Source: an uncultured Chloroflexia bacterium (GTDB taxonomy: Bacteria; Chloroflexota; Limnocylindria; QHBO01). Taken from it: a DNA stretch of 64,000 bases. Below the pieces are notes generated by a model that saw only the letters and a list, made by a program, of their open reading frames with translations, was not told the origin of the DNA and ran no database searches. The translations under genes were made by a program, and so were the position numbers. Below are positions 9,225 to 54,757 of this stretch, piece after piece (position 1 is the stretch's first letter; every line of letters starts with the position of its first letter). The stretch spans positions 89,202 through 153,201 of the forward strand of contig CAWFKB010000007.1 of the NCBI GenBank assembly GCA_963816215.1, in the 5' to 3' direction.

Positions 9225-9276
9225 AGGGTCGGTGAGGATACACCCGGTCTTCCAGCCCCCCAAACCGGCCGTAGGG

Positions 9277-9717
9277 TCAGGACGGCCCGGTGACGACCAC
9301 GAGCGCCTGCTCCTCCGGCAGGCCAGGCCGATTGAGCCGATAGCGGTGCTCGATCCGGACCGAGTGGCTCAGCATCCGCGACACCGGGCAGTAGCGGGTC
9401 GCCGACAGCTCGACCGCGCGGCTGAGGGCCGCCGGTTCCACGGCGCCGGTTACCTGGTGCTCGACCACGATGGTGGTGAAGACGTGCGGCGGGGCCGGCG
9501 CCATCTCGGCCTGCACGGCGATCTCGTAGCGCTCGGGCACCTGGCGCTTCTTGGCCAGGATGCTGGCCACGTCCATGGCCGTGCAGCCCGCGAGGCCGAC
9601 CAGGACCGCTTCCCGGGGTGAGGCGCCAACCCGTTGGGCAGCGTCGGCCGAGTCGAGGACGATCGTGAAGCCCGAGCCGGTCGTGGCGTCGGTGCGCAGG
9701 GAGGCCGCCGGATCCAC
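9277..9717 (-). CDS. OsmC/Ohr-family peroxiredoxin-like protein
   Basis: 146 aa with the OsmC signature GASPREAVLVGLAGCTAMDVASIL. Confidence 0.8.
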   Translation of the reverse strand: MDPAASLRTDATTGSGFTIVLDSADAAQRVGASPREAVLVGLAGCTAMDVASILAKKRQVPERYEIAVQAEMAPAPPHVFTTIVVEHQVTGAVEPAALSRAVELSATRYCPVSRMLSHSVRIEHRYRLNRPGLPEEQALVVVTGPS

Positions 9718-9743
9718 GACCCGGGCCTGGACGCGGAGCCCGC

Positions 9744-10358: not shown

Positions 10359-11129
10359 CTACCGCTTGCGCGCCTTCCAGACCTCCTCACTCGGCCAGTT
10401 TCGGGCCCACTCGAGGGTCGAGATGTTCGTGTACCGGGTCTCGGCGCCTTCGGGGGCGCGAATCTCGACCAGGTCGGTGACCTCGAATCCGCTGCTCACC
10501 AGCAACCGGATCATGTCGCCGTGGGACAGGTGGAACTCGACGCTGTCCTCATCGGTCCACTCGAATCGGTGCATCCCGAACTGGGGACGGATGAGCCTGT
10601 CGGTGGCAGGCCCGTCCACCTCGAGGTCGGGCACGCTCAGCATCAGCAGGACGCTGTTGCCCAGGAAGATGAGCTCGCCGCCCGGTCGCAGGAGGCGCGC
10701 CGCCTCGGGGATCCACTGGTACGGGTCGGCCCAGATGGCCGCGCCGTACTCGGAGATCGCCAGGTCGAAGCTCGCCTCGGGAAGCGGCACCTGTTCGGCG
10801 AATCCCAGGATGAGCGGGAACTCCAGCCCGTGCTCGGCCTGGAGGCGTCGCGCGGTCTCGAGCTGGCGGGGCGAGTTGTCGAGGCCCACCACCCGGGCGC
10901 CCCGTCGAGCGAGCCAGGCGGAGACGTAGCCCGTCCCGCAGCCCAGCTCGATGGCGTCCTTCCCCGCCAGGTCGTCCGGCAGGAGATGCAGCTCGGACTC
11001 GGGCACGCCCCAGATCCCCCACCCCGGCTCGTCCGACGCCCAGTTCCGCTCACCGGCCGCCACGTACTCCTCGGCGGCGGTATCCCACCAGGCGCGGTTG
11101 CGTCGGACGTGCTCGGGCAACTCTGCCAT
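10359..11129 (-). CDS. Class I SAM-dependent methyltransferase
   Basis: Motif I ELGCGTGYVSAWLARRGARVVGLD. ATG at 11129. The long N-terminal extension in the ORF track is Arg-rich junk. Confidence 0.75.
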   Translation of the reverse strand: MAELPEHVRRNRAWWDTAAEEYVAAGERNWASDEPGWGIWGVPESELHLLPDDLAGKDAIELGCGTGYVSAWLARRGARVVGLDNSPRQLETARRLQAEHGLEFPLILGFAEQVPLPEASFDLAISEYGAAIWADPYQWIPEAARLLRPGGELIFLGNSVLLMLSVPDLEVDGPATDRLIRPQFGMHRFEWTDEDSVEFHLSHGDMIRLLVSSGFEVTDLVEIRAPEGAETRYTNISTLEWARNWPSEEVWKARKR

Positions 11130-13559: not shown

Positions 13560-15284
13560 CTACTCCGGGGGCAACGACCCGCGGGTCGCGATCCGCGCGT
13601 CCCGCCCGCCCTGCCCGGTGGCCAGCAGGATCCGACCGCTGGCCTGCGCCTCGAACAACGTTTCGACGGACGCCAGGTCGTCGATGTCGGCCACCGTCTT
13701 GTCCTCGCGGACGCGGACGATCCGCGGGAAGCGCAGCGCAAAGCCGCTCCCGTGGCGCGTGCTGCGCATGATCCGGTCGAACGCGATCTCGACCACGACC
13801 TCGGGCACCACGCTGCGGTAGCGGCCGAAGTCGCGGAGCGTGGTCTTCTGGAAATGCTCGGTGAAGGCGGCGATCTCCGCATCGGTCAGGCCGGTGTAGG
13901 CCTTGCCCACCACGGACAGGCCCGATCCATCGGTCTCGCGCACGGCAAAGGTGTAATCGGACAGCACGCCCCGGCGCTTGCCGTGGCCCCACTCGACGCC
14001 CACCACCACGCAGTCGAGGGTGGCGAGCGCCTTCTTGAGCTTCAGCCAGCCGAGCCCGCGACGACCCGGCTGATAGACCGATGCCGGGTCCTTGACCATG
14101 AGCCCCTCGTTGCGCCGCTCGCGAGCGGCGTCGAACAGAGCGTCCACCTCGTCCGTGCTCGTGGCCCGATCCAGGCGGGCGTACAGGAGCCGGCCATCGG
14201 TCTTGCCCGGCAGATCGAGCGCTTCCAGGGCCGCCCGGCGCTCGCGGAGCGGCGTCTCCAGCAGGTCGCGCCCGTCGACGTGTAGCACGTCGAACGCGAC
14301 CAGGACCACCGGTACGCGCTCCAGGAGTGCGGCGTCGGGATTGACCCGGCCAAGACGCCGCTGGAGGGCGGCGAAGTCCAGGACGGCGCCCGCCTTGAAC
14401 GGGATCAGCTCCCCGTCCAGGACCAGGTCATGGCCGAGGGAGGCAACCGAGCTGACGACCTCCGGGAAGGAGACGGTGATCTCCTTCAGGTCGCGGCTGA
14501 AGAGGCGCGCGGTGCCGCTGGCGAGATGGAGCTGAGCCCGGATGCCGTCGTACTTGTCCTCGATCCAGGCCTCGTCACCCACCCGGCGCACGACCTCCGC
14601 CGCGTCCCCGACCGGGGTCGCGAGCATGGGTCGGATGGGTCGTCCCAGGTGCAGGCCGGCGGTGTCGAGCTGGCCGCGCCGGGCCAGGGTGGCTGCCTCA
14701 CCGGGTTCGCCCAGGAGCATCAGCGCGCGTCGAACCGATGCCTGCGGCGCGTCGAAGGCGGCGGCAATGGCCTCCTCCAACAGGCCCTCACGCAGACCAA
14801 TGCGCGTTTCGCGTGCCGCGATCCGCGCGACGTATCGGGCTTCGTCAGGCGTGGCCCGCCGGAACAGCTCGGTCATGACCGCCACCCGGGCGTCGGTGGT
14901 CGGGGCATCGGCCATGGCCCGGTAGCCGTCGGCCACGTCGCCCACGGTCAGTACCGGGCCCGCGGGACGCTGGGCGGCAAGGAGGTCCGCCGCCGCATCC
15001 CCGAAGTCGGAGTGGCGGAGCCACGCGGCGGACATCGCTTCTTCTGCGGCCCCGCTGGCTGCGGCCAGGGCGGCGGCCTGCTGGACCCATCCCAGGCCGA
15101 GACGGTCCGCGGCGCCGGGGAGCGGCTTGCCCGACAGGAACGTTGCGGCGCGCGGCAGATCCGCGGCCGGCAGGTCATGCAGGTAGGCGGCCAGGATGTC
15201 GCGCTTGGCGAGCTTGGACCGGGTCGCCGCCACCGCGTCCGCGGTGGCGGCAAAGGCACTGAACGGGGAGCTTCGGGATGCCAT
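13560..15284 (-). CDS. lig: ATP-dependent DNA ligase (LigB/Lig1-like, with N-terminal DNA-binding domain)
   Basis: 574 aa. Motif I EDKYDGIRAQ, motif III LDGELI, motif V GLMVKDPASVY, motif VI WLKLK. Confidence 0.85.
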   Translation of the reverse strand: MASRSSPFSAFAATADAVAATRSKLAKRDILAAYLHDLPAADLPRAATFLSGKPLPGAADRLGLGWVQQAAALAAASGAAEEAMSAAWLRHSDFGDAAADLLAAQRPAGPVLTVGDVADGYRAMADAPTTDARVAVMTELFRRATPDEARYVARIAARETRIGLREGLLEEAIAAAFDAPQASVRRALMLLGEPGEAATLARRGQLDTAGLHLGRPIRPMLATPVGDAAEVVRRVGDEAWIEDKYDGIRAQLHLASGTARLFSRDLKEITVSFPEVVSSVASLGHDLVLDGELIPFKAGAVLDFAALQRRLGRVNPDAALLERVPVVLVAFDVLHVDGRDLLETPLRERRAALEALDLPGKTDGRLLYARLDRATSTDEVDALFDAARERRNEGLMVKDPASVYQPGRRGLGWLKLKKALATLDCVVVGVEWGHGKRRGVLSDYTFAVRETDGSGLSVVGKAYTGLTDAEIAAFTEHFQKTTLRDFGRYRSVVPEVVVEIAFDRIMRSTRHGSGFALRFPRIVRVREDKTVADIDDLASVETLFEAQASGRILLATGQGGRDARIATRGSLPPE

Positions 15285-15345
15285 GTCGGTCCGAGTCTAG
15301 GCGCCCGCTTGACGGGCGCCATCGGTCCGGCCACCCTTCGCGCCG

Positions 15346-40475: not shown

Positions 40476-41444
40476 TTGACCGATCCCCCCTTTCCCCCGC
40501 CCGATGACGAACCGCTCCACGGCGAGCTGGCGGAGCACCTGTCTGACGCCCTCCAGCGCGTCCCGGAGACGGCCGGGCGCGACCTCACTTTCACCCCGCT
40601 CTCGGGCGGGATCACGAACCGGAACTTCCTGATCACCGTCGCCGGCGAGGCGGATCGGTACGTCATCCGCCTGGCAGGCAACGACACCTTCCTGCTGGGC
40701 ATCAGCCGCGAGGTGGAGCACGCCGCCACCGTGGCCGCCGCCGGCGTGGGGGTGGGCCCCGAGGTGGTCGCCTTCATCAAGCCCGAGGGCTACCTCGTCA
40801 CCCGCTTCATCATCGGTCAGCCGGTCAGCGACGACGCCGTGCGCGATCCCGCCACCCTGGCCCGGGTGGCCGACTCCATCCGCCGGGTCCACGGCGGGCC
40901 GGCCATCCCCGGCCTGTTCGTTCCGTTGCGGATCTGCGACGCGTACCACGCCCTCGCATCGGCCCGCGGCGTCCCGGACCCGGCCGGCTGGGACGCGGCG
41001 CTGGCCGCGGGACGGCGGATCGAGCGCGCCCTGCTGGATGCGCCGCTCCCCCTGGCGCCGTGCCACAACGACCTGCTCAACGCGAACTTCATCGACGACG
41101 GCGAGCGGATCCGGATCGTGGACTGGGAGTACGCCGGCATGGGCGACCTGTTCTTCGACCTGGGCAACTTCAGCATCAACCACGAGCTGAGCCCCGAGCA
41201 GGACGTCACCTTCCTGTGTGCCTACGACCAGACCGATGCGCCTGACCCCGCGCGCCTCGCGCGGCTGACGCTCATGCGCGTGGTGTCCGACTTCCGCGAG
41301 GCAATGTGGGGCGTCCTCCAGCAGGCGATCAGCACCCTGGACGTGGACTTCGTGGAATACGCCGACGAGCACTTCGACCGGCTGCTGCGCCATGCCGCGG
41401 AGCCGCGCTTCGAGGACGCCCTGCGCGAGGTCGCCGGTGGCTGA
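40476..41444 (+). CDS. Choline/ethanolamine kinase-family phosphotransferase (LicA-like)
   Basis: TPLSGGITNRNFLI (Brenner-type) and HNDLLNANFIDDGERIRIVDWEYAGMGDLFFDLGNF. TTG start with GAGGG 9 nt upstream. Confidence 0.75.
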   Translation: MTDPPFPPPDDEPLHGELAEHLSDALQRVPETAGRDLTFTPLSGGITNRNFLITVAGEADRYVIRLAGNDTFLLGISREVEHAATVAAAGVGVGPEVVAFIKPEGYLVTRFIIGQPVSDDAVRDPATLARVADSIRRVHGGPAIPGLFVPLRICDAYHALASARGVPDPAGWDAALAAGRRIERALLDAPLPLAPCHNDLLNANFIDDGERIRIVDWEYAGMGDLFFDLGNFSINHELSPEQDVTFLCAYDQTDAPDPARLARLTLMRVVSDFREAMWGVLQQAISTLDVDFVEYADEHFDRLLRHAAEPRFEDALREVAGG

Positions 41445-43864
41445 CGCCGCGCGCGTCGTGATCATCGGCGGGGGCGTGGGCGGAACAGCCATCGCCTATC
41501 ACCTCGCCCGACTGGGCTGGACCGAGGTCGTGCTCCTCGAACGATCGGAACTGACCAGCGGATCCACGTTCCACTCCGCGGGTCTGGTGGGCCAGCTCCG
41601 CGCCAGCCCGACCTTGACCCGGATGATGGTCGACTCAGTGGATACCTACCGCCAGCTCCAGGCCGAGACCGGCGTGGATCCCGGCTGGCGCGAGGTTGGA
41701 TCGCTCCGCCTGGCCTCCAGCGCCGAACGGATGGAGGAGCTGCGCCGCCAGGCCGGCTGGGCCAAGGCCTATGGGCTCGAGATGGCGCTCGTCTCCGCCG
41801 ACGAGGCGCAGGCCCGCTTCCCGCTCATGTCAACCGCGGGCGTGCTCGGCGCGGCCTGGCTCCCCACCGACGGCTACCTCGACCCCTCGGGTCTGACCCA
41901 GGCCCTCGCCGCGGGCGCCCGCCAGCGCGGAGTGGACATTCGGACCCGGACCCGGGTCACCGCCATCACGGTCGTGAACGGGCGCGTGACCGGGGTGGAG
42001 ACCGATGCCGGACCGATCCAGGCCGAATTCGTCGTCAACGCGGCGGGCATGTTCGCGCCGGAGGTCGGCCGCCTGGCCGGAGTCGCCGTCCCGATCATCC
42101 CGTTCGCGCACCAGTACCTCGTGACCGAGCCCATCGACGGCGTGACCCCGGATCTGCCCGCAGCTGCGTGACCCCGATCATCTGGTCTACTTCCGGCCCG
42201 AGGTCGGCGGCCTGGTGATGGGCGGCTACGAGCGCGATCCGGCCGCGTGGGGACTGGACGGCATCGCCCCCGACTTCAACGGCAAGCTCCTGCCGCCCGA
42301 CTGGCCGCGCTTCGAGGAGATCAGCCGCGGCGCGGTCCTCCGGGTGCCTGCCATGGCCACCGCCGGCGTGCGGCAGCTGATCAACGGCCCGGAGGGCTTC
42401 ACTCCCGACAACGAGTTCATCCTGGGCGAGACCGAGGTGCGCGGCTTCTGGGTCGCCGCCGGCTTCTCGGCCCACGGGATCGCCGGCGCGGGCGGGATGG
42501 GCCGCCAGGTCGCGCACTGGATCGTGGACGGCGAGCCGGAGTACGACCTGTGGAAGATGGACATCCGCCGGTTCGGGGCGCAGTACCGGTCACGAACCGT
42601 CGTCCAGGCGCGGGCCACCGAGAACTACGCGACCTACTACGACATCCACTACCCCAACGAGGAACGGCAGTCCGCCCGGGCGCTGCGCCTCTCCCCAACG
42701 TACGGGCGCCTGGCCGAGCTGGGCTGCGCGTTCGGCGAGAAGTCCGGCTGGGAGCGACCGAACTGGTTCGACAGCAATGCCCCGCCGGGCGACCCGGCGC
42801 TCCGCCCGCGCGGATGGGCGGGCCACCACTGGTCACCGGCCATCGAGGCCGAGGCCCTGGCCACCCGCACGACCGCCGCCCTGTTCGACGAGACGAGCTT
42901 CTCGAAGATCGAGATCAGCGGGTCGGGCGCGCTCGCCTTCCTGCAGCGCCTGTGCGCCAACGACATGGACCGACCCATCGGTCGAATCACGTACACCCAG
43001 ATGCTCAACCGCCGGGGCGGGATCGAGTGCGACTTCACCGTCACCCGCCTCGCGGCGGATCGGTTCTTCATCGTCACCGGCACCGCGTTCGGGAATCACG
43101 ACCTGGGCTGGATCCGGTCGCATGCCCCCGACGACGGCAGCGTGACCCTGACCGATGTGACCTCGGCCCGGGCGTGCCTCGGCATCTGGGGTCCGCGCGC
43201 GCGCGACATCGTGGCCTCGACCAGCACCGATGACTGGTCGAACGACGCATTCCCCTACCTGAGCGCCCGCCAGGTGAGCGTCGGCCCGGTTCCCGTCCTG
43301 GCGCTGCGGGTCACGTATGTCGGGGAGCTGGGCTGGGAGCTCTACGCCCCCATGGAATACGGCCTCGTCCTGTGGGACACGCTGTGGGCCGCCGGGAAAC
43401 CGCACGGCATGGTGGCCGGCGGCTACCGGGCGATCGAGGCACTGCGTCTGGAGAAGGGTTACCGGGTGTGGTCGAGCGACATCACGCCCGACGACTCCCC
43501 GGACCAGGCGGGTTTGGGGTTCGCGGTCCGGATGGGCAAGGCCGAGCTGTTCATCGGCCGCGACGCGCTCGAAGCCGCCCGGGCGGGCGGGGTGGATCGG
43601 CGCCTGTGCTGCCTGGTCCTCGACGAGCCGCTGGCCGTGGCGCTGGGCAACGAGCCGATCCGGATCGGGCAGCAGGTCGTGGGACGCGTGACGTCCGGTG
43701 GCTACGGGTACACGGTCGGGGCCAGCATCGCCTACGGCTACCTCCCCGCGGCGCAGGCCGACGTGAATCAGCGGGTCGAGGTCGAGATCTTCGGGGAGTG
43801 GGTAGGCGGAACGGTGAGCGCCGAGCCGTTGTTCGACCCCAGCGGGGAGCGGATCCGGGCCTGA
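41437..43864 (+). CDS. Dimethylglycine/sarcosine dehydrogenase-family FAD oxidoreductase fused to a GcvT-like aminomethyltransferase domain, with one apparent frameshift
   Basis: GTG overlaps the kinase stop. N-terminal FAD motif VVIIGGGVGGTAIAYHL and a DAO domain. HQYLVTEPIDGV, then a stop in this frame, while LRDPDHLVYFRPEVGGLVMGGYE continues in the next frame from about 42158. C-terminal GcvT-like folate-binding domain. Confidence 0.7.
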
Positions 43865-44698: not shown

Positions 44699-45688
44699 AT
44701 GACCGATTCGCGTCGTCTTCGACTTCCCGTGGTCCTGCTCGTCGTTGGCCTGCTGGCCATCGCGACCGCCTGTCAGCCGCCGAGCGCCTCCGCGTGCGGG
44801 CTGGTCGACTACGCGACGACCATCCAGACCGATCTCGACACCCTGACGGCACTGGACGCCACCCAGGTCGCGACGGCCGGGACACCCGACAACGTCACCG
44901 CGCTGGCCACCCTGGACACGCTCGACGCCACGGTGGTCGAAGCCCAGGCGGCCCTCGACGCGGCATCGGACGACGAGGTCAACACCGTGACGCGGACCTC
45001 CTTCCAGGCCGTGCTGGACGCAACCTCGGCCGCAACGTCATCGATGCGGACGGCCATCGAATCCGGAGACGCGGGTCAGGTCAGTTCGGCCATAACCGGT
45101 CTCCAGGTTGCTTCGGCGGCCATCGGCGCGTTCACCGGCCTGGTGAACGGGCTCGGGGAGGACTGCCCGACCGCCTCACCGAGCGAGTCGACAGCCGCGA
45201 GCGCCTCCGCGGAGGCAACGCTCGAACCGACCCTGGCCCCGACCGTCGCACCCACCGCCACCCCCGTCCCACCCACGGACACCCCTGCGCCGACGGCAAC
45301 CCCAGCGGAAACCGAGTCCGAGACGGAGGCTGAAGCCACCCCGACCGCCACGCCTGCGCCGACCGCGACACCTACCCCAACGCCCACCCCCACGCCAACG
45401 CCGAGCCCGTCCCCCACTCTGAGCCCGACTATCGAGCCGAGCCCTTCTGCCTCCGAGCCACCTACGCCGGATGACGAGGGCAGCGGGCTACTGCCGTGGA
45501 TCCTGGTCCTGGGTGTCGGTGGCCTGGGTGCCGCCATCGTCGTCCTGTGGTACGCCAACCGCAACGACGAGGGCGAGCCGCCCGACGAGTTCGGGACGCC
45601 GCCCGACGAGTTCGGTGGACCGGACCAGGGGACCTCCGCACCGCCGCCTGTCGGTGGTGCGCCGCCACCGACCGCGCCGCAGTCCTAG
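44699..45688 (+). CDS. Lipoprotein with Pro/Thr-rich spacer and C-terminal TM anchor
   Basis: LAIATAC lipobox, long TPTPAPTATP low-complexity region, C-terminal hydrophobic helix, PPDEFG repeats. Confidence 0.55.
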   Translation: MTDSRRLRLPVVLLVVGLLAIATACQPPSASACGLVDYATTIQTDLDTLTALDATQVATAGTPDNVTALATLDTLDATVVEAQAALDAASDDEVNTVTRTSFQAVLDATSAATSSMRTAIESGDAGQVSSAITGLQVASAAIGAFTGLVNGLGEDCPTASPSESTAASASAEATLEPTLAPTVAPTATPVPPTDTPAPTATPAETESETEAEATPTATPAPTATPTPTPTPTPTPSPSPTLSPTIEPSPSASEPPTPDDEGSGLLPWILVLGVGGLGAAIVVLWYANRNDEGEPPDEFGTPPDEFGGPDQGTSAPPPVGGAPPPTAPQS

Positions 45689-45755
45689 GTCGCGCCCACC
45701 GGATCCGGCGATTTCGCCAGTTTCGGGCGCGCCCTAACCGGCTCGGTGACCCGGT

Positions 45756-46745
45756 CTACCCGCTGACCGTTGCCTGGGCCGTCGAAGCCTTGAACGTCAG
45801 CCCCCGCTCGAGTTTGGCCTGCACGACGTGGTACGCGATGAGCAGCTGGGTGAGGGCCAACGGGTCGGAGTGCCTCTCGACGCTGCCGTCGAGGTAACTG
45901 CCGATCTCGTCCGGTCGCAGATGACGATGGGTCTCCATGTGCGCCCAGATCCGCTCGTCGAGCTCGAGAGCGCGCGAGGGTGAAACGGTCCCGTCGATCT
46001 CCAGGATCGAGGTACCCGGAGCGTCCGCCTCCGGCTCGAGGCGAATCGGAGGCGGGTCGTCCCGCCCAGCGCTCGCCAGCACGTCCTCGAGGTCGAGATG
46101 CGGCAGCCCGGCGCCGAGCCGCAAACGCACATTCAGATGGGCATCGTCATCGACCGCCGTGCCCGCAAGGAAATAGCCGGGTGGCGGGTAGAACTGGACG
46201 AGCAGGTCGGCGCGCTCGCGCTGAGGTGCGAGGTACAGCCGGTGGTCATCGAGCCTGTCGACGATCTGGCGAATCACCTGCGGCACGCTGTACCCACGCT
46301 CCGCGCAGTCCCGCTTCACCTTCCATGCCCACTTCAGCTCCTCCTGCGGCTGGAGCCACACCCGAACGTCGAACGCGCTCCGGAGGCTCGCCGTCAGCAG
46401 GGGGAAGAGGCCGCGGATGACGACGATCTCCCGCGGGTCGACCTCCTCGCGCGGGCCGAAGGTCCCCGTCGAGTGGTCGTACGTTGGCTTCGAGACGATC
46501 TCGCCGCGCGCGATGGCTGCAACCTGCCGCTCCATCAACTCGATGTCATTGGCAGCCGGGTTGAGGGCCGTCACGCCGAGCCGCTTCCGTTCAGCCCGAT
46601 CCAGCTTGTGATAGTCGTCCAGGCACAGGTTCGTGATCCGTTCCGCGCCGAAGATCCGATACAGGCCCCTGACCAGGGTGGTCTTGCCGCTGCCGCTGTC
46701 GCCTCCGACGGCCACCATCACGGGACGGCCGGTCGTCGTCGCCAC
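45756..46745 (-). CDS. prk: Phosphoribulokinase
   Basis: PRK/uridine-kinase fold with VMVAVGGDSGSGKTT P-loop and ITNLCLDDYHKLDRAERK. GTG start 2 nt after the RuBisCO stop. Confidence 0.75.
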   Translation of the reverse strand: MATTTGRPVMVAVGGDSGSGKTTLVRGLYRIFGAERITNLCLDDYHKLDRAERKRLGVTALNPAANDIELMERQVAAIARGEIVSKPTYDHSTGTFGPREEVDPREIVVIRGLFPLLTASLRSAFDVRVWLQPQEELKWAWKVKRDCAERGYSVPQVIRQIVDRLDDHRLYLAPQRERADLLVQFYPPPGYFLAGTAVDDDAHLNVRLRLGAGLPHLDLEDVLASAGRDDPPPIRLEPEADAPGTSILEIDGTVSPSRALELDERIWAHMETHRHLRPDEIGSYLDGSVERHSDPLALTQLLIAYHVVQAKLERGLTFKASTAQATVSG

Positions 46746-46747
46746 GG

Positions 46748-48085
46748 TCAGAACCTCACGTCCGACCACAGGTCGAGGGCCTGGCGCAACTCGGGACAGC
46801 TCTGTGCCGCATGCTGGAGTGTCTGCCCGGCAGCGACCGCCTCGACCGCGGCGCGCGCCGCAACTGCGCCGGCTCGGCTCCCTCCGGGATGCCCATGCAC
46901 GCCGCCGCCGAACAGGAAGAAGGCATCCGTGCCGAAGACCGCGTGGAGCTGGGGGAGGTGGCCCGGGTGCAGGCCGCCCGAGGCCACGGGCACGACAGGT
47001 TTGATCGCACCCCACTCCTGGTCGAACAGCGTCCCGCCGCCGGCGGGTGCAAATGCGGCGGTCATCATGCGGCGCCGTTCGCCCATCTCCTCGATCGTTC
47101 CTTCGAGCTTCCCCACGCCCGTGCCGACATGGAGATGATCAACGCCCATCAACCGCGCCCACTTTGCGATGACCAGGAAGTCCACGCCGTGATCGGGGTG
47201 ACGATCCATGACCGCGTGCATGGCCCGGTGTGCGTGCAGCGCCAGTCCCAGGCGCTCAGCCTCCGCACGGAGAGACGCGGTCGCCGCAAAACCCGCCGTC
47301 AGAAAGTCGACCATCACGAAACGTCCCCCCCGATCGGCGACCACGTTGGCGCGGCGAAGCATCTCCTCGGTGTTGGCGGCGGTGACGTTGGCCCAGTAGC
47401 CCTTGCGCTCTCCGGTCTCGGCCTCGGCGCGCTGCACGAGCTCAAGTGTTCGCTCGATGCGTTCGTCAAAGGGAGACCACGCCTGACTGTTGAGGTTCTC
47501 GTCGTCCTTGATGGTGTCGATCCCGCCGCTCAGGGTCTCGTAGGCGCGTCGTGCATGCTCAGCCGGCGAGAGTCCCAGCTTCGGCTTAATGGTTGAGCCC
47601 GTGAGCGCCCTGCCATGCACGTTCAGCTTCTCCCGAACGCCCGCCATGCCGAAGGCCGGCCCCGGGAAGGAATCGACCAGGGGGAGCGGGATGCGCATGT
47701 CGAGCAGGCGGAGCGCGCTCACCGCCTTGAAGCCGAACACATTGCCGACCACGCTGGACAGGATGTTCGGAATGCTGCCGAACTCGAACAGGTCGATCGG
47801 GTACGCGATCCAGACGAGGCCGTTGGCGATCCGGTACACGCGCGCCCGAAGCTCGTAGGCCAGACCTTCGTCGTCCTCGCCGACCTCGGTCCACGTCCCG
47901 GTCGAGGATTCGGCCGCCACCGCAGCCGCGGCCTCTTCCATCGACGTGTCCGCCCGCGGAGCGACCTTGAACGCGACCAGCAGATCCGTCGCAATCGGCA
48001 CGTAGTCGAGGGCCAGGTACAGCTCCTGGTACGAGTGGACTCCACGGGTCCGCTCAGGTCCTGTCCGCGCGGTGGTCTGGCTCAC
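46748..48085 (-). CDS. rbcL: Ribulose-1,5-bisphosphate carboxylase/oxygenase large subunit (no small subunit nearby; form II/III-like)
   Basis: 445 aa with the active-site residues of a genuine RuBisCO: GSTIKPKLGLS, GGIDTIKDDENLNSQ, HAHRAMHAV, HLHVGTGVGKLEG, PVASGGLHPG, LFGGGVHGHPGG. N-terminal GTWTEV and VGNVFGF. Confidence 0.85.
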   Translation of the reverse strand: MSQTTARTGPERTRGVHSYQELYLALDYVPIATDLLVAFKVAPRADTSMEEAAAAVAAESSTGTWTEVGEDDEGLAYELRARVYRIANGLVWIAYPIDLFEFGSIPNILSSVVGNVFGFKAVSALRLLDMRIPLPLVDSFPGPAFGMAGVREKLNVHGRALTGSTIKPKLGLSPAEHARRAYETLSGGIDTIKDDENLNSQAWSPFDERIERTLELVQRAEAETGERKGYWANVTAANTEEMLRRANVVADRGGRFVMVDFLTAGFAATASLRAEAERLGLALHAHRAMHAVMDRHPDHGVDFLVIAKWARLMGVDHLHVGTGVGKLEGTIEEMGERRRMMTAAFAPAGGGTLFDQEWGAIKPVVPVASGGLHPGHLPQLHAVFGTDAFFLFGGGVHGHPGGSRAGAVAARAAVEAVAAGQTLQHAAQSCPELRQALDLWSDVRF

Positions 48086-48190
48086 GGCACGCTCATGCCT
48101 CGGATGTTTGAGTCAGCCTCGCAAACCACCGGCCCGCTGGCATAGGGCCATTTGTACCGAAAACGCCGAACTACCCGCTGACCGGCACGA

Positions 48191-48265
48191 TGGAGCCGAA
48201 GGTGGGATTCGAACCCACGACCGACGGTTTACGAAACCGTTGCTCTACCCCTGAGCTACTTCGGC
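48191..48265 (-). tRNA. tRNA-Thr (anticodon CGT)
   Basis: Hand-folded: acceptor GCCGAAG/CTTCGGC, anticodon stem ACGGT/ACCGT with loop TTCGTAA, T-loop TTCGAAT, discriminator T + CCA encoded. Confidence 0.85.
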
Positions 48266-48331
48266 CTGGCGCCGCGCGATTCTACCGCCTGATCCTTCGG
48301 ACGCCAGATCGGTCCGCTACCCTCGGATCGC

Positions 48332-48823
48332 ATGACTGACGAAGCGCCTGTCCTTCGCGCGCCCACATCGTCGGACTACGACATCCTGATCGGTCAGATC
48401 AATGACTGGTGGGGCGGCCGCGAGATGCGCCACCTGCTGCCGCGCCTCTTCTTCCAGCATTTCGCCCCGCTTTCGTTCGTCGTGGACGGAGATGGCGACG
48501 CGGGACCCATCGCGTTCCTCATCGGCTTCGTGTCGCAGACGGACCCGGACCTGGGCTACATCCACTTCGTGGGCGTCCACCCAAATCGCCGCCGCGAGGG
48601 ATTGGCCGGACTGATGTACGAGACGTTCTTCGCGAAGGCTCGGGCGCGCGGCGTCCGGCGGGTGATGGCCCTCACCTCCCCGGTGAACCGCACGTCCATC
48701 GCCTTCCATCGGTCGATGGGCTTCACCCCGCACCCGGGCCCGGCCGAAGCGGACGGGATCCCGTACCAGCCGGACTACGACGGACCGGGCGACGACCGGG
48801 TGGTGTTCGAGCGACCGGTCTGA
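48332..48823 (+). CDS. GNAT-family N-acetyltransferase
   Basis: 163 aa, with an acetyl-CoA-binding-like segment HPNRRREGLAGLMYETF. Confidence 0.7.
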   Translation: MTDEAPVLRAPTSSDYDILIGQINDWWGGREMRHLLPRLFFQHFAPLSFVVDGDGDAGPIAFLIGFVSQTDPDLGYIHFVGVHPNRRREGLAGLMYETFFAKARARGVRRVMALTSPVNRTSIAFHRSMGFTPHPGPAEADGIPYQPDYDGPGDDRVVFERPV

Positions 48824-49681: not shown

Positions 49682-50857
49682 TCAGCGACGGGCGCCGAGG
49701 CGTCGGCCGATTCCGATGGTGCGGGCAACCCGGGCTGCGGCGTTGGCCAGGAGGCGCTCGGTGTCGGCCATGGCGGAGTCCAGCTCGACCGGTCGATCGA
49801 TGATCGGCTGGACCACGGCGAAGGCACCAGATGCCTCCAGGATCTCGGCCCCGGGGCCGAGGCCGCCGCACAGGAGGGCCACGGGGATGCCGCGCGCGTA
49901 GTGAGCCACGCCCAGCGCCGCCTTGCCGGCCAGGGTCTGCTCGTCGGCTCGTCCCTCGCCGGTGAGGACGAGATCCGCGTCCTGGAGGGCGGCGGGCAGC
50001 CCCACCAGCTCGGCCACCTCCTCGACTCCCGGAAGGACGACCGCTGACGTGAAGCCCAGCAGGCCGGCGGTCGTGCCGCCCGCGGCGCCGGCCCCCGGAA
50101 CGTCGGTGACGTCGCGACCGGTTGCCCGCCGGATCTCGGCGCCCCAGCGGACGAGCGCGGCATCGAGCTCCGCCACGGTGGCCGCATTGGCGCCCTTCTG
50201 GGGGGCGAAGGTCGCAGCCGCCCCGGCAGGCCCGGTCAGCGGGTTGGTGACATCCGAGGCGATCACGATCTCCGTCCCCGCCAGCCGTGGATCGAGTTCG
50301 TCCACCTCGACGTGATCGAGGTTCGACAACGCGGCGCCGCCATCGGGCAGCGGCTCGCCCCGCGCGTCCAGCAGCCGCAATCCGAGTTCCACCAGCAGGC
50401 CGGCGCCCCCGTCTGTCGTCGCCGAGCCACCGAGGCCCACCACGATCCGGCGTGCGCCCGCATCGAGGGCGGCGCGGATGACCCGGCCCGTCCCGCGTGT
50501 GGACGCCGTGCGCGCGTTGGCCGGCGTGCGCTCGGCAGCCGAGAGCCGTGCCAGGCCGCTGGCCTCGGCCATCTCCACGAACGCGGACGATCCAGAGTCC
50601 ATGGACAGCCAGGCGGCCTCCACCGGACGGCCCAGCGGGTCCACCGTGGTGCACACCTGCCGCGTGACCTGCTCCCCGTTGGCCGCGGCGATGGCCGTCA
50701 GCGTTCCCTCCCCGCCGTCCGCCATCGGGATCTGCAGGATCGTGTCGTCGGGTCGGATCGAAGCCCAGCCACGAGCGATGGCCTCGGCCGCGGCCACCGA
50801 GTCCAGCGCGCCGCCGAACGAGTCGGGAGCGACCACCACCCGCAGGGCGGGGCTCAC
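49682..50857 (-). CDS. Glycerate kinase (GlxK/GarK family)
   Basis: 391 aa, glycerate-kinase family throughout (VVAPDSFGG..., GGGAGLL...). ATG overlaps the upstream stop (ATGA). Confidence 0.8.
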   Translation of the reverse strand: MSPALRVVVAPDSFGGALDSVAAAEAIARGWASIRPDDTILQIPMADGGEGTLTAIAAANGEQVTRQVCTTVDPLGRPVEAAWLSMDSGSSAFVEMAEASGLARLSAAERTPANARTASTRGTGRVIRAALDAGARRIVVGLGGSATTDGGAGLLVELGLRLLDARGEPLPDGGAALSNLDHVEVDELDPRLAGTEIVIASDVTNPLTGPAGAAATFAPQKGANAATVAELDAALVRWGAEIRRATGRDVTDVPGAGAAGGTTAGLLGFTSAVVLPGVEEVAELVGLPAALQDADLVLTGEGRADEQTLAGKAALGVAHYARGIPVALLCGGLGPGAEILEASGAFAVVQPIIDRPVELDSAMADTERLLANAAARVARTIGIGRRLGARR

Positions 50858-52767
50858 GAGCTGAGCTCCTTGCGCCGGGCCAGGTAGGCGGGGATGGTGT
50901 TCATCGGCGGACGAATGGCGTCACCCACCTCGCGCACGTCCAGGGTGAATCGGCCGTTCTCCTGGCGGATCTGCTTCATGCGCTCCCCCATATCGGTCAG
51001 CAGCTCCAGGCGCTGGCGTTCCTCGAGCTTGGTGATGGCCGCCTTGAGGATGACGAACGCCATCCGGGACAGGTCAGGCAGGGACTGGTTGCGGTGGATG
51101 CGGCGCTCGAGGTCCACCTGGCCGATCCCGGACAGGCCCACGCGGTCGGCAATGTCGATGAGAAGACCGATTTCGACAGCGTAGCCGGTGAAGAACGGCA
51201 CCGATTCGAGCAGCTCGCGCCGTCCGGCGTATTCGCCCGACAGGGGCTGGATGACCCCGGACAGCTCGGGGAAGAACAGGTTGATCAGGGGCCGCGCCGT
51301 CAGCTCGGTGACCCGCCCACCCTGGTCCGGCTGGAGCTGCCCGCCAGTGACGATGGGACGCTGGTAGAAGCCCTTCACGTACTGGATCCGCGGCTCGCGG
51401 AGCAGTGGCCCCAGCAGGCCGTACACGAACCGGGGCTGGATGTTGCGGATGTCGGTGTCGACCCACACCACCAGGTCGCCGCGCAGCTCGTACAGGCTCT
51501 TCCAGAGCGCCTCGCCCTTCCCCACGTATGCGCCCAGCTCGGGGAGGATCTCGTCGTGCTGGCGGACGGCGGCGCCGAGCTCGCGGGCAATCTCGACCGT
51601 GCGGTCGGTGGAGGCCGAGTCGACGACCAGGAGCTCATCAACCAGCGGGACTCGGTCCATGAGCGCCTCTCGAATGCGGCGTATGGTCAGGCCAATCGTC
51701 TTCTCCTCGTTGAGGGTCGGGAGGCCCACGCTGACGGTCAGGGCCTGCCGTTCCTTGAGATCGACCAGCCGATGGAGGTCGCGGAACTCGCTGGCGTGGA
51801 ACGTGTTCTCCGCGAACCAGCGGTCAACAACAGTCGGCAGGGTGTTGCTCTCCTCGAACGCGGCATCGGCCGCCGGGAGGCTCCCGGCCTCGGCCCGCAG
51901 GTGCTCGAAGGTCCCCGCGGTCACGGGCTGTCGCGACTTCACCACCATCACCGTGGGGCGGGCGCGGGATGCCACCGTCTCCGCCAGGCGCCCGAACAGG
52001 CGACGCCCGGTGCCGCTCCCCGTGGGCTCCGCCGCGGCCCCGACCACCACCAGGTCGTGGTGGGCCGACTCGCGCAGGATGGCGCCGCGCACGGTCGGTG
52101 CCTCGATCACGAGCGGCTTGACCGTCACGCCCCGGGCATGCCGTTTGACGAGCCCGCTCAACGCCGCCTGGCTGCGGGCCAGCGCGTCGGGACCGCCCCC
52201 CGGCGGGACGACGTGAAGGGCCACCAGCTGGGCACCAAATCCGCGGGCCAGGTCCGCCGCGAGGGTCAGGGCCAGCTCGGCGTTGGGGCCGCCACGGACC
52301 GGGACCAGGATGGAGCTCACGCTCCCGAGGCCGCGCTGCTTGACCACGGCGATGTCACATGGCGCGTCGCGGACCACGTCGTCGATCGTGGTCGAGAACA
52401 CCGCTCTCCCGCGTTGTCCCTGTCGCGGAGGTCCGCCCCAGCCGAAGATGACGAGATCGGCCCCGATCTCGGCCACCGCCTCCACGATCCCGTCCGATGC
52501 CTGGCGGCCGATCCGAACCGCGGTCCGGACCTCGACCGACGCGTCATCGCGGAAGTTCGGCACCCGCTGCAGGAGGCGCCGCGCCTCACGAGCGCGGTTG
52601 GCGCCCTCGGCCAGGGACACGCCCTCGGGCACCTCGACGATGCCCAGGGCCGTGATCTCGGTCGCCCGCCGATGGGCCAGGTGCGAGCCGATCCGGACCA
52701 GGTCGCGCGCCGTCCGCGGGTTGGCCAGGGGCATGAGGATCCGATACGGCCCCCGGCGGCGCGCCAT
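50854..52767 (-). CDS. gpgS: Fusion of tandem universal stress protein (UspA) domains with glucosyl-3-phosphoglycerate synthase (GpgS)
   Basis: N-terminal about 300 aa are two Usp-like domains. C-terminal about 320 aa match GpgS closely: LPTLNEE, LVVDSASTDRT, GKGEALWKSL, GGRVTELTARPL, QPLSGEYA, GYAVEIGLLID, HRN. The ATG at 52767 overlaps the upstream stop (TGATG). Confidence 0.7.
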   Translation of the reverse strand: MARRRGPYRILMPLANPRTARDLVRIGSHLAHRRATEITALGIVEVPEGVSLAEGANRAREARRLLQRVPNFRDDASVEVRTAVRIGRQASDGIVEAVAEIGADLVIFGWGGPPRQGQRGRAVFSTTIDDVVRDAPCDIAVVKQRGLGSVSSILVPVRGGPNAELALTLAADLARGFGAQLVALHVVPPGGGPDALARSQAALSGLVKRHARGVTVKPLVIEAPTVRGAILRESAHHDLVVVGAAAEPTGSGTGRRLFGRLAETVASRARPTVMVVKSRQPVTAGTFEHLRAEAGSLPAADAAFEESNTLPTVVDRWFAENTFHASEFRDLHRLVDLKERQALTVSVGLPTLNEEKTIGLTIRRIREALMDRVPLVDELLVVDSASTDRTVEIARELGAAVRQHDEILPELGAYVGKGEALWKSLYELRGDLVVWVDTDIRNIQPRFVYGLLGPLLREPRIQYVKGFYQRPIVTGGQLQPDQGGRVTELTARPLINLFFPELSGVIQPLSGEYAGRRELLESVPFFTGYAVEIGLLIDIADRVGLSGIGQVDLERRIHRNQSLPDLSRMAFVILKAAITKLEERQRLELLTDMGERMKQIRQENGRFTLDVREVGDAIRPPMNTIPAYLARRKELSS

Positions 52768-54065
52768 CAGGACGGTTCCCTTTGCGCGCCAGCGGCCTGC
52801 GCCTGCCAGGCGCGCACGAGCCACGGCTTGAGGTCCTCGAACTCGCGCGCCTGGGCTTCGACCAGCCGCTCGGCCTGGTCGTCGGTCAGGTCACGGACCT
52901 CGTTGATGAATCCCGCCGTGCGCCCGAAGTACAGCCCCGTCAGCCCGGCCAGCAGGGCCTCGCGGTCCATCCCGGAGCGCTGGAAGGCCAGCAGCGCGTC
53001 GAACAGGCAGCGGATCCAGAGCTCCGAGGGAAAGGCGAAGGTGGACGGATCGTCCACGGACAGGGCCCGGACTCGCTCGAGCTGCTCCCCGGCCAGCACC
53101 CGCTTCCAGACCGTTCCCTCGGCCAGCCGCGCGTTGTCGAAGCCATGAACGAGCGCGGCCTGGTCCACCGTGATCGGCTCCGGGGCGATGACCCGCTCGA
53201 AACCGTACTCGGGCACCGGTTCGGAGCCCTTGATCGGCAGCCACTCGGCGGCCTGCTCTCCGGCCAGCCGGAAGAGGGTCCCGACCACCTGGCGGAACAT
53301 CGGTCCCAGGTCGCCGGCGGGGTCCTTGGGGTCGTGGACCTTGGCCCCCAGCCGGGTCTGGCACACCGCGAACCCGCCGGCCAGGGCGTGGTGGGTCATC
53401 CAGATGTCGATCCCGAACCGCGCCGTGCCCTCGTCCCAGTCGGGCAGCTCGAGCAGCGCCTTGACCAGGTCGCGGCTGATGGCGAACTCCCCGCCGATCG
53501 GCTGCCGCAGGCGACGCCCGTACAGGGTCCGGGTCAGCGGGTAGGCGATGTGGTTGGTGATCGTGCCGTCGTACTTGTGGCGGGCGTAGAGCGGCGCGAC
53601 GTAGTCGTAGCCGCCCTTCAGGATCGGTCCGGCCAGGAGCTCGATCCACTCGGGCACGATGCTGCGCAGGTCGGAGTCGACGAGGACGAGCGCCTCGACC
53701 TTCAGCTCGTGCGCGACCTCCAGCAGGGCGCGCACCGCCGATCCCTTCCCGCTGGGTCCCCGGTAGGTGACCGCGATCCGCCGCAGCCGGTGCGGGGGCC
53801 GGATGAGGATCATCTGCTCCAGGTAGTCGGGGCTCTCGGTCGTGACCGCCACCCGGGGCGTGTCGTCGGCGGAGCCGCCGTCCGCGTTCACGAGCACCGG
53901 TTTGAGGTCGGTGAAGTACTGGACCATGCCCGCCGTCGCGGCCCGCACCACGTACCCGATCGTGTCCGCATTCCCGAAGGACGGGATGCCCACCATGAGA
54001 TCCGCCTGGCCCACCCGGCGCACCGCGTTCCATCCGCGTGCGTCCAGAGCGGAGGCGACCTTCAC
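52767..54065 (-). CDS. GT-A-fold glycosyltransferase (GpgS/MpgS-like), specificity unknown
   Basis: GIPSFGNADTIGYVV and VNADGGSADDTP glycosyltransferase motifs. The GTG overlaps the upstream stop (GTGA). Confidence 0.6.
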   Translation of the reverse strand: MKVASALDARGWNAVRRVGQADLMVGIPSFGNADTIGYVVRAATAGMVQYFTDLKPVLVNADGGSADDTPRVAVTTESPDYLEQMILIRPPHRLRRIAVTYRGPSGKGSAVRALLEVAHELKVEALVLVDSDLRSIVPEWIELLAGPILKGGYDYVAPLYARHKYDGTITNHIAYPLTRTLYGRRLRQPIGGEFAISRDLVKALLELPDWDEGTARFGIDIWMTHHALAGGFAVCQTRLGAKVHDPKDPAGDLGPMFRQVVGTLFRLAGEQAAEWLPIKGSEPVPEYGFERVIAPEPITVDQAALVHGFDNARLAEGTVWKRVLAGEQLERVRALSVDDPSTFAFPSELWIRCLFDALLAFQRSGMDREALLAGLTGLYFGRTAGFINEVRDLTDDQAERLVEAQAREFEDLKPWLVRAWQAQAAGAQREPS

Positions 54066-54757
54066 CGGTTGATCACGCGCTTCTTGCGTCCCTTCCAGAA
54101 CAGGTTGGTGGGCCCGGGCGCCCGGTCGGGCTGGATGGCGATCACGATCCAGTCCTCGGTCGCGGTCCCCGGCTGGTAGCGCGAGTTGGCGTGCTTGGCC
54201 ACCGCCTGGCGGAAGCCGTTCTCGTGCCAGGCGTGGAACCACGACCCGAGCGGCATCTTGACCGATGGCGTGACTCGCACGCGGACACTCTCCGAGACCA
54301 GGCCCGACAGGAGCCGGCGCCGCTCCTGGTACGGCACGTCCCCCAGGAATTCGCCGTCGATCTCGACCACGTCCACCACCACGAACGCGCGCCGCTTCTC
54401 GAGCTCCGCGGGATCAGGCCCCTCTTCAGGCAGGTCGCCGGCCTCGTCGGCCAACGCCTCCGACCATCGCTCGGCCGCCGACCCATGGCCCAGGAAGGGC
54501 TGGGCGCTCCAGATCCCGTCGAGCACCGCCTGATCGGCGTCAACCGACACGGCGAGGACCTCGGCCAGCTCGTGGTAGAAGTCGTCGACCGGCACCCCCG
54601 ACCCATCGGTCAGGCGGACGGTCCCGTCGCTGATGGAAGCCACCAGGCGATCCCCGGTCCAGTACGGCTCGAACGACCAGTGCGGGCTGTTGATGCTCAC
54701 TCTCGACTCGGTCGCGAGCTGGGGAAGGATGGGCCCGACGCCGCGCTCGGTGGTCAT
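54062..54757 (-). CDS. ATP-dependent DNA ligase-like protein (second paralog) with motif-I Lys and motif-III Glu substituted. Probably non-catalytic.
   Basis: ILPQLAT...HWSFEPYWTGDR (motif I, K->Y); VLDGIWS (motif III, E->I); FVVVDVVEIDGEFLGDVPYQERRRLL (motif IV); NGFRQAVAKHANSRYQPGTATEDWIVIA (motif V/VI). ATG overlaps the helicase stop (ATGA). Confidence 0.55.
   Translation of the reverse strand: MTTERGVGPILPQLATESRVSINSPHWSFEPYWTGDRLVASISDGTVRLTDGSGVPVDDFYHELAEVLAVSVDADQAVLDGIWSAQPFLGHGSAAERWSEALADEAGDLPEEGPDPAELEKRRAFVVVDVVEIDGEFLGDVPYQERRRLLSGLVSESVRVRVTPSVKMPLGSWFHAWHENGFRQAVAKHANSRYQPGTATEDWIVIAIQPDRAPGPTNLFWKGRKKRVINR

Follow-up and report, generated by a model that had tools for sequence, protein, structure and literature searches.

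A form Iα RuBisCO gene and its phosphoribulokinase partner in a Limnocylindria-type Chloroflexota genome

Introduction

Which pathway does a RuBisCO large-subunit gene serve when phosphoribulokinase (PRK) is its only cbb companion and a tRNA gene lies directly upstream? Such a locus occurs in the window, the whole 64-kb stretch of Chloroflexota DNA that we analysed. A preliminary description took the enzyme for a form II/III-type RuBisCO, found the pair reminiscent of nucleotide/pentose salvage or a reductive hexulose-phosphate (RHP) shunt, and saw in the adjacent tRNA and flanking lipoprotein a possible sign of horizontal acquisition. We find instead that the pair is very probably a two-gene operon of form Iα RuBisCO and PRK, which would supply the CBB-specific core or at least a CO2-assimilating shunt. 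Rather than an oddity of nucleotide salvage, the locus is an ordinary example of a CO2-fixation module already on record.

Within the CBB cycle, only PRK and RuBisCO are specific to the pathway; the other enzymes usually come from housekeeping genes located elsewhere. Pentose-bisphosphate salvage has no need of PRK but requires AMP phosphorylase and R15P isomerase.

Form Iα is a deep-branching, small-subunit-independent relative of form I, known first from Limnocylindria ('Eulabeiota', RIF-CHLX) Chloroflexota. Its definition rests on two Rifle 'Eulabeiota' genomes that have no rbcS and only a 'partial CBB pathway'; in them prkB and cbbR adjoin the RuBisCO gene, and the enzymes share about 50% identity with form III and 48% with form I (West-Roberts et al. 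2021, bioRxiv 10.1101/2021.08.23.457424). Liu et al. 2023 and Bamba et al. 2026 (bioRxiv 10.64898/2026.09.21.753380) have since analysed the group again. The clade literature infers a dimer (L2) and describes genes adjoining PRK.

Results

The two genes form a compact pair on the minus strand. rbcL (46748–48085, minus strand) encodes 445 residues from a GTG start and was identified by Pfam, NCBIfam, PDB and tree placement; prk (45756–46745, minus strand) encodes 329 residues, also from GTG, and was identified by Pfam and NCBIfam. Direct reading of the junction (46746–46757, minus strand) puts the rbcL TGA stop at 46750–46748, followed by 'CC' and the prk GTG at 46745, a spacer of 2 nt. A GAGG Shine-Dalgarno-like motif lies at 46757–46754, within the rbcL 3′ end. 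This junction suggests translational coupling within a single operon. Both genes evolve under purifying selection relative to three relatives (dN/dS 0.09–0.28; rbcL 0.09–0.14, prk 0.13–0.28).

Upstream, a 105-nt leader (48086–48190, minus strand) separates rbcL from tRNA-Thr(CGT) (48191–48265, minus strand, as rbcL), which was called by ARAGORN and by Rfam at 73.5 bits. Two tRNAs are the sole Rfam matches in the whole window. A consensus scan of 45500–48500 found no sigma-70 consensus and no intrinsic terminator. On the far side of prk, an ORF on the plus strand (44699–45688, 329 aa) has a lipobox-like N terminus and drew no matches in Pfam and NCBIfam scans.

No small-subunit gene accompanies the pair. 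Three RbcS queries run by tblastn against the 64-kb window returned nothing better than E = 2.5, while the positive control, locus L009, gave 1e-23 to 1e-73; PF00101 (rbcS) matched none of the ORFs scanned in the window. Across about 55 ORFs spanning the 64 kb, Pfam detected no LysR/cbbR, cbbX/Q/O or carboxysome gene, and likewise no AMP phosphorylase, R15P isomerase, Hps/Phi or integrase. Hydrogenase, CO dehydrogenase and CBB genes beyond rbcL–prk were also absent from the 64 kb. The missing rbcS, the missing integrase, the lack of cbb genes other than prk, the 2-nt spacing and the upstream tRNA all stand as the preliminary description had them. The neighbourhood is heterotroph-like, with amino-acid permeases, a dimethylglycine-dehydrogenase-like gene and an aldehyde dehydrogenase.

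RbcL has the residues of a working carboxylase. Pfam resolves RuBisCO_large_N and RuBisCO_large domains, in agreement with NCBIfam. At each of the 21 canonical active-site positions, the aligned RbcL has the same residue as spinach RbcL (E60, T65, W66, N123, T173, K175, K177, K201, D203, E204, H294, R295, H298, H327, K334, L335, S379, G380, G381, G403 and G404). RbcL therefore keeps the carbamylated Lys201, the metal ligands D203 and E204, and K175, K334 and H294, and no key residue is lost. Its scores fall far under the cut-offs of the RuBisCO-like-protein (form IV) models. Judged by these residues, RbcL is a bona fide carboxylase-type RuBisCO and not a RuBisCO-like protein, as had been proposed from the start.

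Profile and structure scores place RbcL between forms I and III, nearest to form I ancestors and form I'. It passes NF003252, the curated large-subunit model for form I (565 bits, cut-off 438), just fails the form III model TIGR03326 (494.4 bits, cut-off 497.45) and lies far under the form II model NF010002 (263 bits, cut-off 489). True form III representatives behave in the opposite way, scoring higher with the form III model than with the form I model. Among PDB entries, reconstructed form I ancestors (550 bits) and form I' 6URA (497 bits) match best; form III entries reach about 350–400 bits. Matches to solved structures fix the folds of RbcL and PRK (E = 1e-164 and 1e-66). The RbcL C terminus, ...DLWSDVRF, ends 8–13 residues short of form I termini in the alignment, and RbcL has neither the form I C-terminal extension nor the 12-residue helix insertion. 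RbcL and its clade share the form Iα character states GTGVGKLEG, GGLHPGH and TWTEV(G/D/E).

Phylogeny assigns RbcL to form Iα as published: it lies within the form-I-related group but apart from forms I and I'. We built a neighbour-joining tree with 200 bootstraps, in which forms I' and I'' are sparsely sampled and form I'' has no labelled sequence. The window RbcL forms one clade with those of RBG_16_70_13 and GWC2_73_18 at 100% bootstrap. Forms I and I' and the ancestors make up another 100% group, with the window clade outside it, and the 6URA-like P0120 (731 bits to 6URA) joins form I and the ancestors at 100% to the exclusion of the window clade. All form-I-related sequences, window clade included, unite at 95.5%, and form III representatives stand apart. 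Basal branching is weak, the window grouping with a Bathyarchaeia-type group at only 37.5%. A search of 50%-identity representatives, in which form-I-related sequences collapse to 1–2 clusters, was used solely for form III and III-like outgroups. Tree and profile scores together overturn the form II/III-type assignment.

RbcL is 90% identical to MEK6191180.1, a GenBank Chloroflexota MAG protein, and 77–84% identical to RbcLs of Limnocylindria-type MAGs; among these, the two Rifle Chloroflexi genomes, RBG_16_70_13 and GWC2_73_18, account for 77–79%. We measured 45% to form III and 47–51% to form I. An exact-sequence look-up of the window RbcL returned no record. P0046 (468 aa, '70% identity') and L008 were considered as an intermediate lineage and rejected as frameshifted copies from the same clade. 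We infer that loci L005 and L007 represent the two founding form Iα genomes; the papers and supplements searched did not name RBG_16_70_13 or GWC2_73_18 as such.

The partner gene encodes a predicted class II-type phosphoribulokinase of the cyanobacterial/plant-like family. The protein matches Pfam PRK (1e-41), passes NCBIfam NF005655 (315 bits, cut-off 236), shares about 50% identity with cyanobacterial PRKs across residues 3–188 and matches 9QKO/9QKN over its full length. Comparison with 6GVE and 6HZK shows conservation of the P-loop, GDSGSGKTT, and of LCLDDYHKLDR; within the P-loop, Ser occupies the position of the plant and cyanobacterial redox Cys. Literature searches found neither a 'cyanobacteria-specific PRK' structure paper for 9QKO nor RbcS–PRK fusions.

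An rbcL–prk pair, with or without cbbR, is the recurring layout of this clade. prk directly follows rbcL in all ten related loci, after gaps of roughly 3–24 nt. Nor did tblastn with these three RbcS queries detect rbcS in any of nine clade loci searched, against the same L009 positive control. A divergent LysR/cbbR gene accompanies the pair at seven of the ten (L005–L008, L016, L017 and L019), in keeping with the published account, and is absent at L001, L004 and L018 and in the window, which together form a 445-aa subclade of nearest relatives. Among called genes within ±8–10 kb, L001, L016, L017 and L018 have no cbb genes beyond rbcL–prk with or without cbbR. The genes called at the relatives' loci likewise include no AMP phosphorylase, R15P isomerase, Hps or Phi.

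The leader contains a sequence that resembles a motif of relatives with cbbR. It carries GGCGTTTTCGGTACAAATGGCCCT (48167–48144), common to L001, which aligns with the operator-like motif ATGTATTGGACRGCAT of cbbR-bearing relatives. The operator-like motif is degenerate in the window, and its well-conserved version is missing in both the window and L001. GGCGTTTTCGGTACAAATGGCCCT may have a regulatory role, and we regard it as a candidate.

The most probable function for the pair is CO2 assimilation. PRK would convert Ru5P from the pentose-phosphate pool, with ATP, into ribulose-1,5-bisphosphate, which an RbcL homo-oligomer would carboxylate to two molecules of 3-phosphoglycerate; PGK, GAPDH, aldolase, FBPase, transketolase, RPE and RPI would come from housekeeping genes elsewhere in the genome. 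Because PRK makes RuBP, the pair reads as a CBB-type carboxylation module. Both enzyme activities and the oligomeric state of RbcL are presumed. A complete CBB cycle, in an autotrophic or a mixotrophic role, can only be presumed, since the 64 kb contain neither further CBB genes nor cbbR, nor genes for hydrogenase or CO dehydrogenase.

The same chemistry could serve a different physiology. It is possible, though on the unlikely side, that a heterotroph uses the pair as a PRK–RuBisCO shunt, drawing Ru5P from the pentose-phosphate pathway to re-assimilate CO2 or as an electron or redox sink during organotrophic growth, with autotrophy unsupported; the physiological role alone would then differ from our preferred reading. 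Clustering limited to rbcL and prk, a window lacking lithotrophy genes and cbbR, the heterotroph-like gene content (permeases, dimethylglycine-dehydrogenase-like gene, aldehyde dehydrogenase) and the 'partial CBB pathway' of the founding genomes (West-Roberts et al. 2021) point this way. Yet the content of the window fits a shunt and a full cycle alike, the CBB enzymes that are not cycle-specific usually belong to the housekeeping set located elsewhere, and the literature infers CBB fixation for the form Iα clade.

We consider it improbable that rbcL–prk is a self-contained, relocatable 'minimal carbon-fixation cassette' of Limnocylindria, lodged in tRNA-linked variable regions, that has lost CbbR control in the 445-aa subclade and serves not autotrophy but a shunt for CO2 reassimilation or redox balance. 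If true, the loss of CbbR control would alter expression, possibly through read-through from the tRNA-Thr promoter.

tRNA-Thr is an integration hotspot in the closest relative, L001, where a full tRNA-Thr and an exact 46-nt duplicate of the tRNA 3′ part flank an insert of about 8 kb. The L001 rbcL–prk pair lies outside this tRNA-flanked island and is syntenic with that of the window. The two share the order EndoIII–tRNA ... rbcL–prk ... Peptidase_C26–DMGDH–ChoK–permease–MurT, in which the endonuclease III gene was identified by 89% tblastn identity to the L001 HhH-GPD gene. At 67.6% GC and a GC3 of 0.83–0.86, the pair falls inside the range of the window, and neither GC nor codon usage gives an outlier signal of foreign origin. 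rbcL–prk is bracketed by exact copies of a 14-nt direct repeat, CGGTCAGCGGGTAG (48171–48184 and 45756–45769); we considered the repeat as an att pair and judged it probably due to chance, given the chance length estimated for 4.5 kb of 70% GC DNA.

That rbcL–prk is a recently acquired islet integrated beside tRNA-Thr is accordingly very unlikely, because the L001 pair sits outside the island and in syntenic position. The idea draws on the tRNA directly upstream of rbcL, the L001 integration site at the same tRNA, the repeat on both sides of the pair, flanks unrelated in nine of ten clade loci and immediate flanks that both differ between window and L001. Against it stand the typical base composition and the lack of an integrase in the window. 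The repeat itself is missing from L001, has one copy constrained by prk C-terminal codons and approximates the length expected by chance. For this genome, the suggestion of horizontal acquisition through the tRNA thus loses its support.

Least credible, to the point of near exclusion, is a form II/III- or III-type RuBisCO in AMP/nucleotide salvage or an RHP shunt: the small subunit and further cbb genes are absent nearby, one archaeal form Iα gene adjoins R15P isomerase genes in the literature, making salvage use conceivable, and the form III score is merely about 3 bits under its cut-off, but the form I score is higher, the form II score is far too low, the tree sets RbcL in a form-I-related group apart from form III, PRK shares the operon in 10/10 relatives although salvage does not need it, and AMP phosphorylase, R15P isomerase, Hps and Phi are missing from the window and from the relatives' called genes. 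The absence of further cbb genes, which had suggested salvage, recurs among the genes called within ±8–10 kb at the four relatives' loci examined and leaves that proposal unsupported.

Discussion

With this form Iα–PRK operon, a high-GC Limnocylindria-type genome contributes a further intact example, and existing concepts stay unchanged. Form Iα is of interest as a small-subunit-free bridge from form III-like ancestors to modern form I RuBisCO. The practical value here lies in correct annotation, as form Iα RbcL and PRK rather than form III salvage, and in the data point that one subclade has rbcL–prk with no neighbouring cbbR.

Among known systems, form III enzymes of archaeal PRK/RHP or pentose-bisphosphate pathways resemble RbcL in being homo-oligomers of a large subunit of about 440 aa, partnered by PRK in methanogens. 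Unlike them, RbcL scores under the form III HMM cut-off, is phylogenetically separate and lacks AMP phosphorylase, R15P isomerase and Hps–Phi in its window. Canonical form I (L8S8) cbbLS operons share the passed NCBIfam form I model, the identical active site and the PRK/CBB context, but the window has no small subunit, C-terminal extension, cbbX/Q/O or carboxysome genes, and identity is only 47–51%.

Form I' (Banda et al. 2020; 6URA, Candidatus Promineofilum breve) comes closer, as a Chloroflexota, small-subunit-free, prk-associated form I relative that likewise has neither C-terminal extension nor 12-residue insertion, with 497 bits between RbcL and 6URA. The window RbcL is nevertheless only about 57% identical to the 6URA-like P0120 and lacks the derived I/I' motifs TWTEVW, SQPFNRWRDRF and GG(I/L)HV. 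Form I' assembles into L8 octamers, while dimers are reported for form Iα.

The form Iα of Limnocylindria/'Eulabeiota' is the nearest match. The window differs in its upstream tRNA-Thr and degenerate operator-like motif and, with L001, L004 and L018, in lacking the divergent cbbR seen at seven loci. It agrees in its Chloroflexota host of about 70% GC, its identity of about 45–51% to forms III and I, its RbcL without a C-terminal extension, a prk directly downstream with no rbcS, and a clade with RBG_16_70_13 and GWC2_73_18 at full bootstrap support (100%).

Results

The rbcL-prk pair is genuine and intact, and its limits were given correctly. Both genes lie on the minus strand and begin with GTG, rbcL (46748-48085) encoding 445 aa and prk (45756-46745) 329 aa; tRNA-Thr(CGT) (48191-48265) shares their strand and precedes rbcL by 105 nt. 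Our gene calls agree with the coordinates and anatomy in the preliminary description. Read directly, the rbcL TGA stop (46750-46748) is followed by 2 bases and then the prk GTG, with a GAGG motif within the rbcL 3' end, 8 nt upstream of the prk start. Pfam and NCBIfam identify the products as RuBisCO large subunit and phosphoribulokinase (PRK). The catalytic residues of a genuine carboxylase, claimed previously, were kept on alignment: all 21 active-site residues examined are identical to spinach RbcL, the sequence used having K175, K201, H294, K334, E60, N123, S379 and G403 at canonical numbers.

Family models place the window RbcL nearer to form I than to forms II and III. It passes the form I large-subunit subfamily model NF003252 (565 bits; cut-off 438), falls just below the cut-off of the form III model TIGR03326 (494.4 bits; cut-off 497.45), and reaches 263 bits against 489 on the form II model. 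The suggested form II/III-type enzyme is not supported. Genuine form III representatives score in the reverse order on NF003252 and TIGR03326; genuine form I reaches about 770-790 bits on NF003252. Against the PDB it scored 550 bits with the form I ancestors that Schulz et al. reconstructed (7QSV and its relatives), 517 bits with 8U66, 497 bits with the form I' enzyme 6URA, about 345-400 bits with modern form I and about 346-404 bits with form III.

The window RbcL belongs to a clade that, in a 5.8-billion-protein collection, comprises about 45 clusters of 440-446 aa at 76-91% identity, below which a gap extends down to 62-65%. Among its named members, MEK6191180.1, encoded by a Chloroflexota MAG, ranks first (90%). 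Scanning GTDB species representatives returned five relatives, all Limnocylindria-type Chloroflexota MAGs, including 'Candidatus Limnocylindrales bacterium' (79%), RBG_16_70_13 (79%) and GWC2_73_18 (77%). The next-nearest groups are 437-aa proteins annotated as Bathyarchaeia in GenBank (63-65%) and a Dissulfurimicrobium group (58%), within whose cluster falls UKL14116.1, a form Iα clan-2 sequence of Bamba et al.

Phylogeny puts the clade in the form-I-related group, outside forms I and I'. In a neighbour-joining tree (40 sequences, 431 trimmed columns, 200 bootstraps, form III root), the window clade groups with RBG_16_70_13 and GWC2_73_18 at 100%. Form I, the 6URA-like form I' sequence P0120 (731 bits to 6URA) and the ancestral reconstructions group at 100% with the window clade outside, and all form-I-related sequences unite at 95.5%, placing the window RbcL there and not with form III. 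The node joining the window clade to the Bathyarchaeia-type group reaches 37.5%, echoing the weak clan-1 support in Bamba et al.

Searches for a small subunit and further pathway genes upheld the preliminary description. In tblastn searches of the 64-kb window with three RbcS queries, one of them from an Ectothiorhodospira locus, no match improved on E = 2.5, and the same queries found no rbcS in nine related loci from Chloroflexota. As a control, each query recovered cbbS of the Ectothiorhodospira locus (1e-23 to 1e-73). Window genes were called by codon-position GC, and the roughly 55 ORFs scanned against Pfam, about nine of them without any match, included no rbcS, LysR/cbbR, cbbX/Q/O, carboxysome, transketolase, aldolase, FBPase, AMP phosphorylase, R15P isomerase, Hps/Phi or integrase gene. 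The claims that no rbcS follows, that prk is the only cbb gene and that there is no integrase stand for the window as scanned.

The pairing is conserved in the clade loci examined, and both genes are under purifying selection. prk follows rbcL within roughly 3-24 nt in 10 of 10 clade loci, and L001, L016, L017 and L018 have no other Calvin-Benson-Bassham (CBB) gene within their called genes (±8-10 kb). Comparison with three relatives gives rbcL a dN/dS of 0.09-0.14 and prk one of 0.13-0.28. Seven loci (L005-L008, L016, L017, L019) have a divergent LysR/cbbR gene alongside, which the window, L001, L004 and L018 lack. Seven relatives (L004-L007, L016-L018) carry ATGTATTGGACRGCAT, a T-N11-A-like motif with CATG repeats nearby, about 75 nt upstream of rbcL; the window (48144-48167) and L001 have in common only a degenerate counterpart, GGCGTTTTCGGTACRAAYGGCCCT. 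Two clade rbcL copies in public assemblies have broken frames: L019:1036-2442 (P0046), seemingly a '468-aa, 70% identity' protein, and L008:10001-11303, disrupted near 10725. We rejected these as an intermediate lineage; both are assembly errors or pseudogenes.

The tRNA gene is an integration hotspot, yet rbcL-prk predates the split between the window and its closest relative, L001 (GCA_038040195.1), because the pair lies outside the L001 island and its outer flanks are syntenic. In L001 a full tRNA-Thr(CGT) (1684-1758) is accompanied, about 8 kb away, by a 46-nt exact copy of its 3' part (9684-9730), which lies 270 nt upstream of rbcL. Such a duplication is the hallmark of an island that has inserted into tRNA-Thr. 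Between the two lie GT4, GH130, FAD_binding_2, NifU and ATP-grasp genes but no integrase; in the window the site is free of this insert. On one outer flank, synteny extends over glycerate kinase, EndoIII and tRNA-Thr; on the opposite flank it takes in Peptidase_C26, a dimethylglycine-dehydrogenase-like gene, choline kinase, a permease and MurT. Composition is unremarkable within the window (GC 67.6%; GC3 0.83 and 0.86), and the proposed horizontal acquisition via the tRNA was not borne out. An exact 14-nt direct repeat, CGGTCAGCGGGTAG, brackets the pair (48171-48184, 7 nt past the 3' end of tRNA-Thr, and 45756-45769, overlapping the prk stop codon; 17/19 when extended). It was not found in L001 and is probably chance, about the yield we estimate for this much GC-rich DNA.

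Two further window loci were seen in passing. A dimethylglycine/sarcosine-dehydrogenase-like gene (DAO, FAO_M, GCV_T, GCV_T_C) occupies two plus-strand frames (41392-42171 and 42215-43864), the break falling in the DAO domain. In L001 the orthologue is one intact ORF of 808 aa; the break in the window copy marks a frameshift pseudogene or else a sequencing error. A Ku-domain protein (8319-9368, minus) and a LigD-like ATP-dependent DNA ligase (13560-15296, minus) suggest non-homologous end joining.

The PRK represents a subtype not confined to cyanobacteria, since entries with cyanobacterial titles match it best. It passes NF005655 (315 bits; cut-off 236), does not pass the proteobacterial class I PRK model, and shares about 50% identity with cyanobacterial PRKs across residues 3-188; alignment to canonical PRKs is limited to the N-terminal 188 residues. 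Full-length matches are 9QKO and 9QKN; the best full-length structural relatives (9QKO, 9QKP, 9QKN) comprise entries titled 'cyanobacteria specific phosphoribulokinase' (Hyella/Chroococcidiopsis PCC 6712) and one titled 'Uridine kinase'. The P-loop reads GDSGSGKTT, with Ser at the redox-regulatory Cys position of plant and cyanobacterial PRK; judged from the alignment, thioredoxin-type regulation via that disulfide should be impossible. Same-clade homologues occur across Chloroflexota and related Terrabacteria.

Some Chloroflexota encode an RbcS-PRK fusion, of which we found no description in the literature. At L020:4556-7311 (GCA_038211425.1), the gene for a 482-aa RbcL overlaps by 4 nt the single continuous ORF downstream, whose product joins a RuBisCO small-subunit domain (PF00101), at the N-terminus, to PRK. 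Two distinct fusion sequences (P0389, P0390) come from different assemblies, and their PRK part belongs to the same clade as the window PRK (57-58% identity).

Discussion

PRK and RuBisCO are the only unique enzymes of the CBB cycle, so an rbcL-prk operon would suffice to install it where housekeeping genes already provide gluconeogenesis and the pentose-phosphate pathway. Carbon would then run from Ru5P through RuBP to 3-phosphoglycerate, a route favoured because prk-rbcL coupling is invariant. The pair may serve autotrophic growth or a mixotrophic or redox shunt; the founding form Iα genomes are described as having only a "partial CBB pathway" (West-Roberts et al.). A glycerate kinase gene 1.6 kb upstream of rbcL sits in a minus-strand cluster (49682-54413) with one USP plus GT2 (glucosyl-3-phosphoglycerate-synthase-like) gene and one mannosylglycerate-synthase-like GT gene. 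The cluster resembles genes for the metabolism of compatible solutes (glucosyl- or mannosyl-glycerate). We do not connect the kinase with RuBisCO, and any tie of the cluster to 3-phosphoglycerate or glycerate from RuBisCO is speculative. The nucleotide/pentose salvage suggested earlier is not supported, as pentose-bisphosphate salvage converts AMP to RuBP via AMP phosphorylase and R15P isomerase with no need of PRK, and prk invariably accompanies rbcL.

Form Iα was defined from one groundwater and one sediment Rifle genome of 'Eulabeiota' (Limnocylindria and Edaphomicrobia) as a RuBisCO without rbcS, with prkB and cbbR adjacent and with identities of about 50% (form III) and 48% (form I) (West-Roberts et al.); the window RbcL is 45% identical to form III and 47-51% to form I representatives. 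Two Rifle loci, RBG_16_70_13 and GWC2_73_18, have exactly this layout and very probably come from the founding genomes, which accessible literature on form Iα does not give by name. The window RbcL has in common with form Iα GTGVGKLEG in loop 6, GGLHPGH and TWTEV(G/D/E). Unlike forms I and I', it lacks their derived TWTEVW, SQPFNRWRDRF and GG(I/L)HV; unlike form I, it has no C-terminal extension, and a 12-residue insertion near the C-terminus is missing. Because of the tree and these character states, which agree, we file it by sequence as form Iα. The pair is a textbook case of a class already published, in which form Iα RuBisCO and PRK occur together in Limnocylindria-type Chloroflexota.
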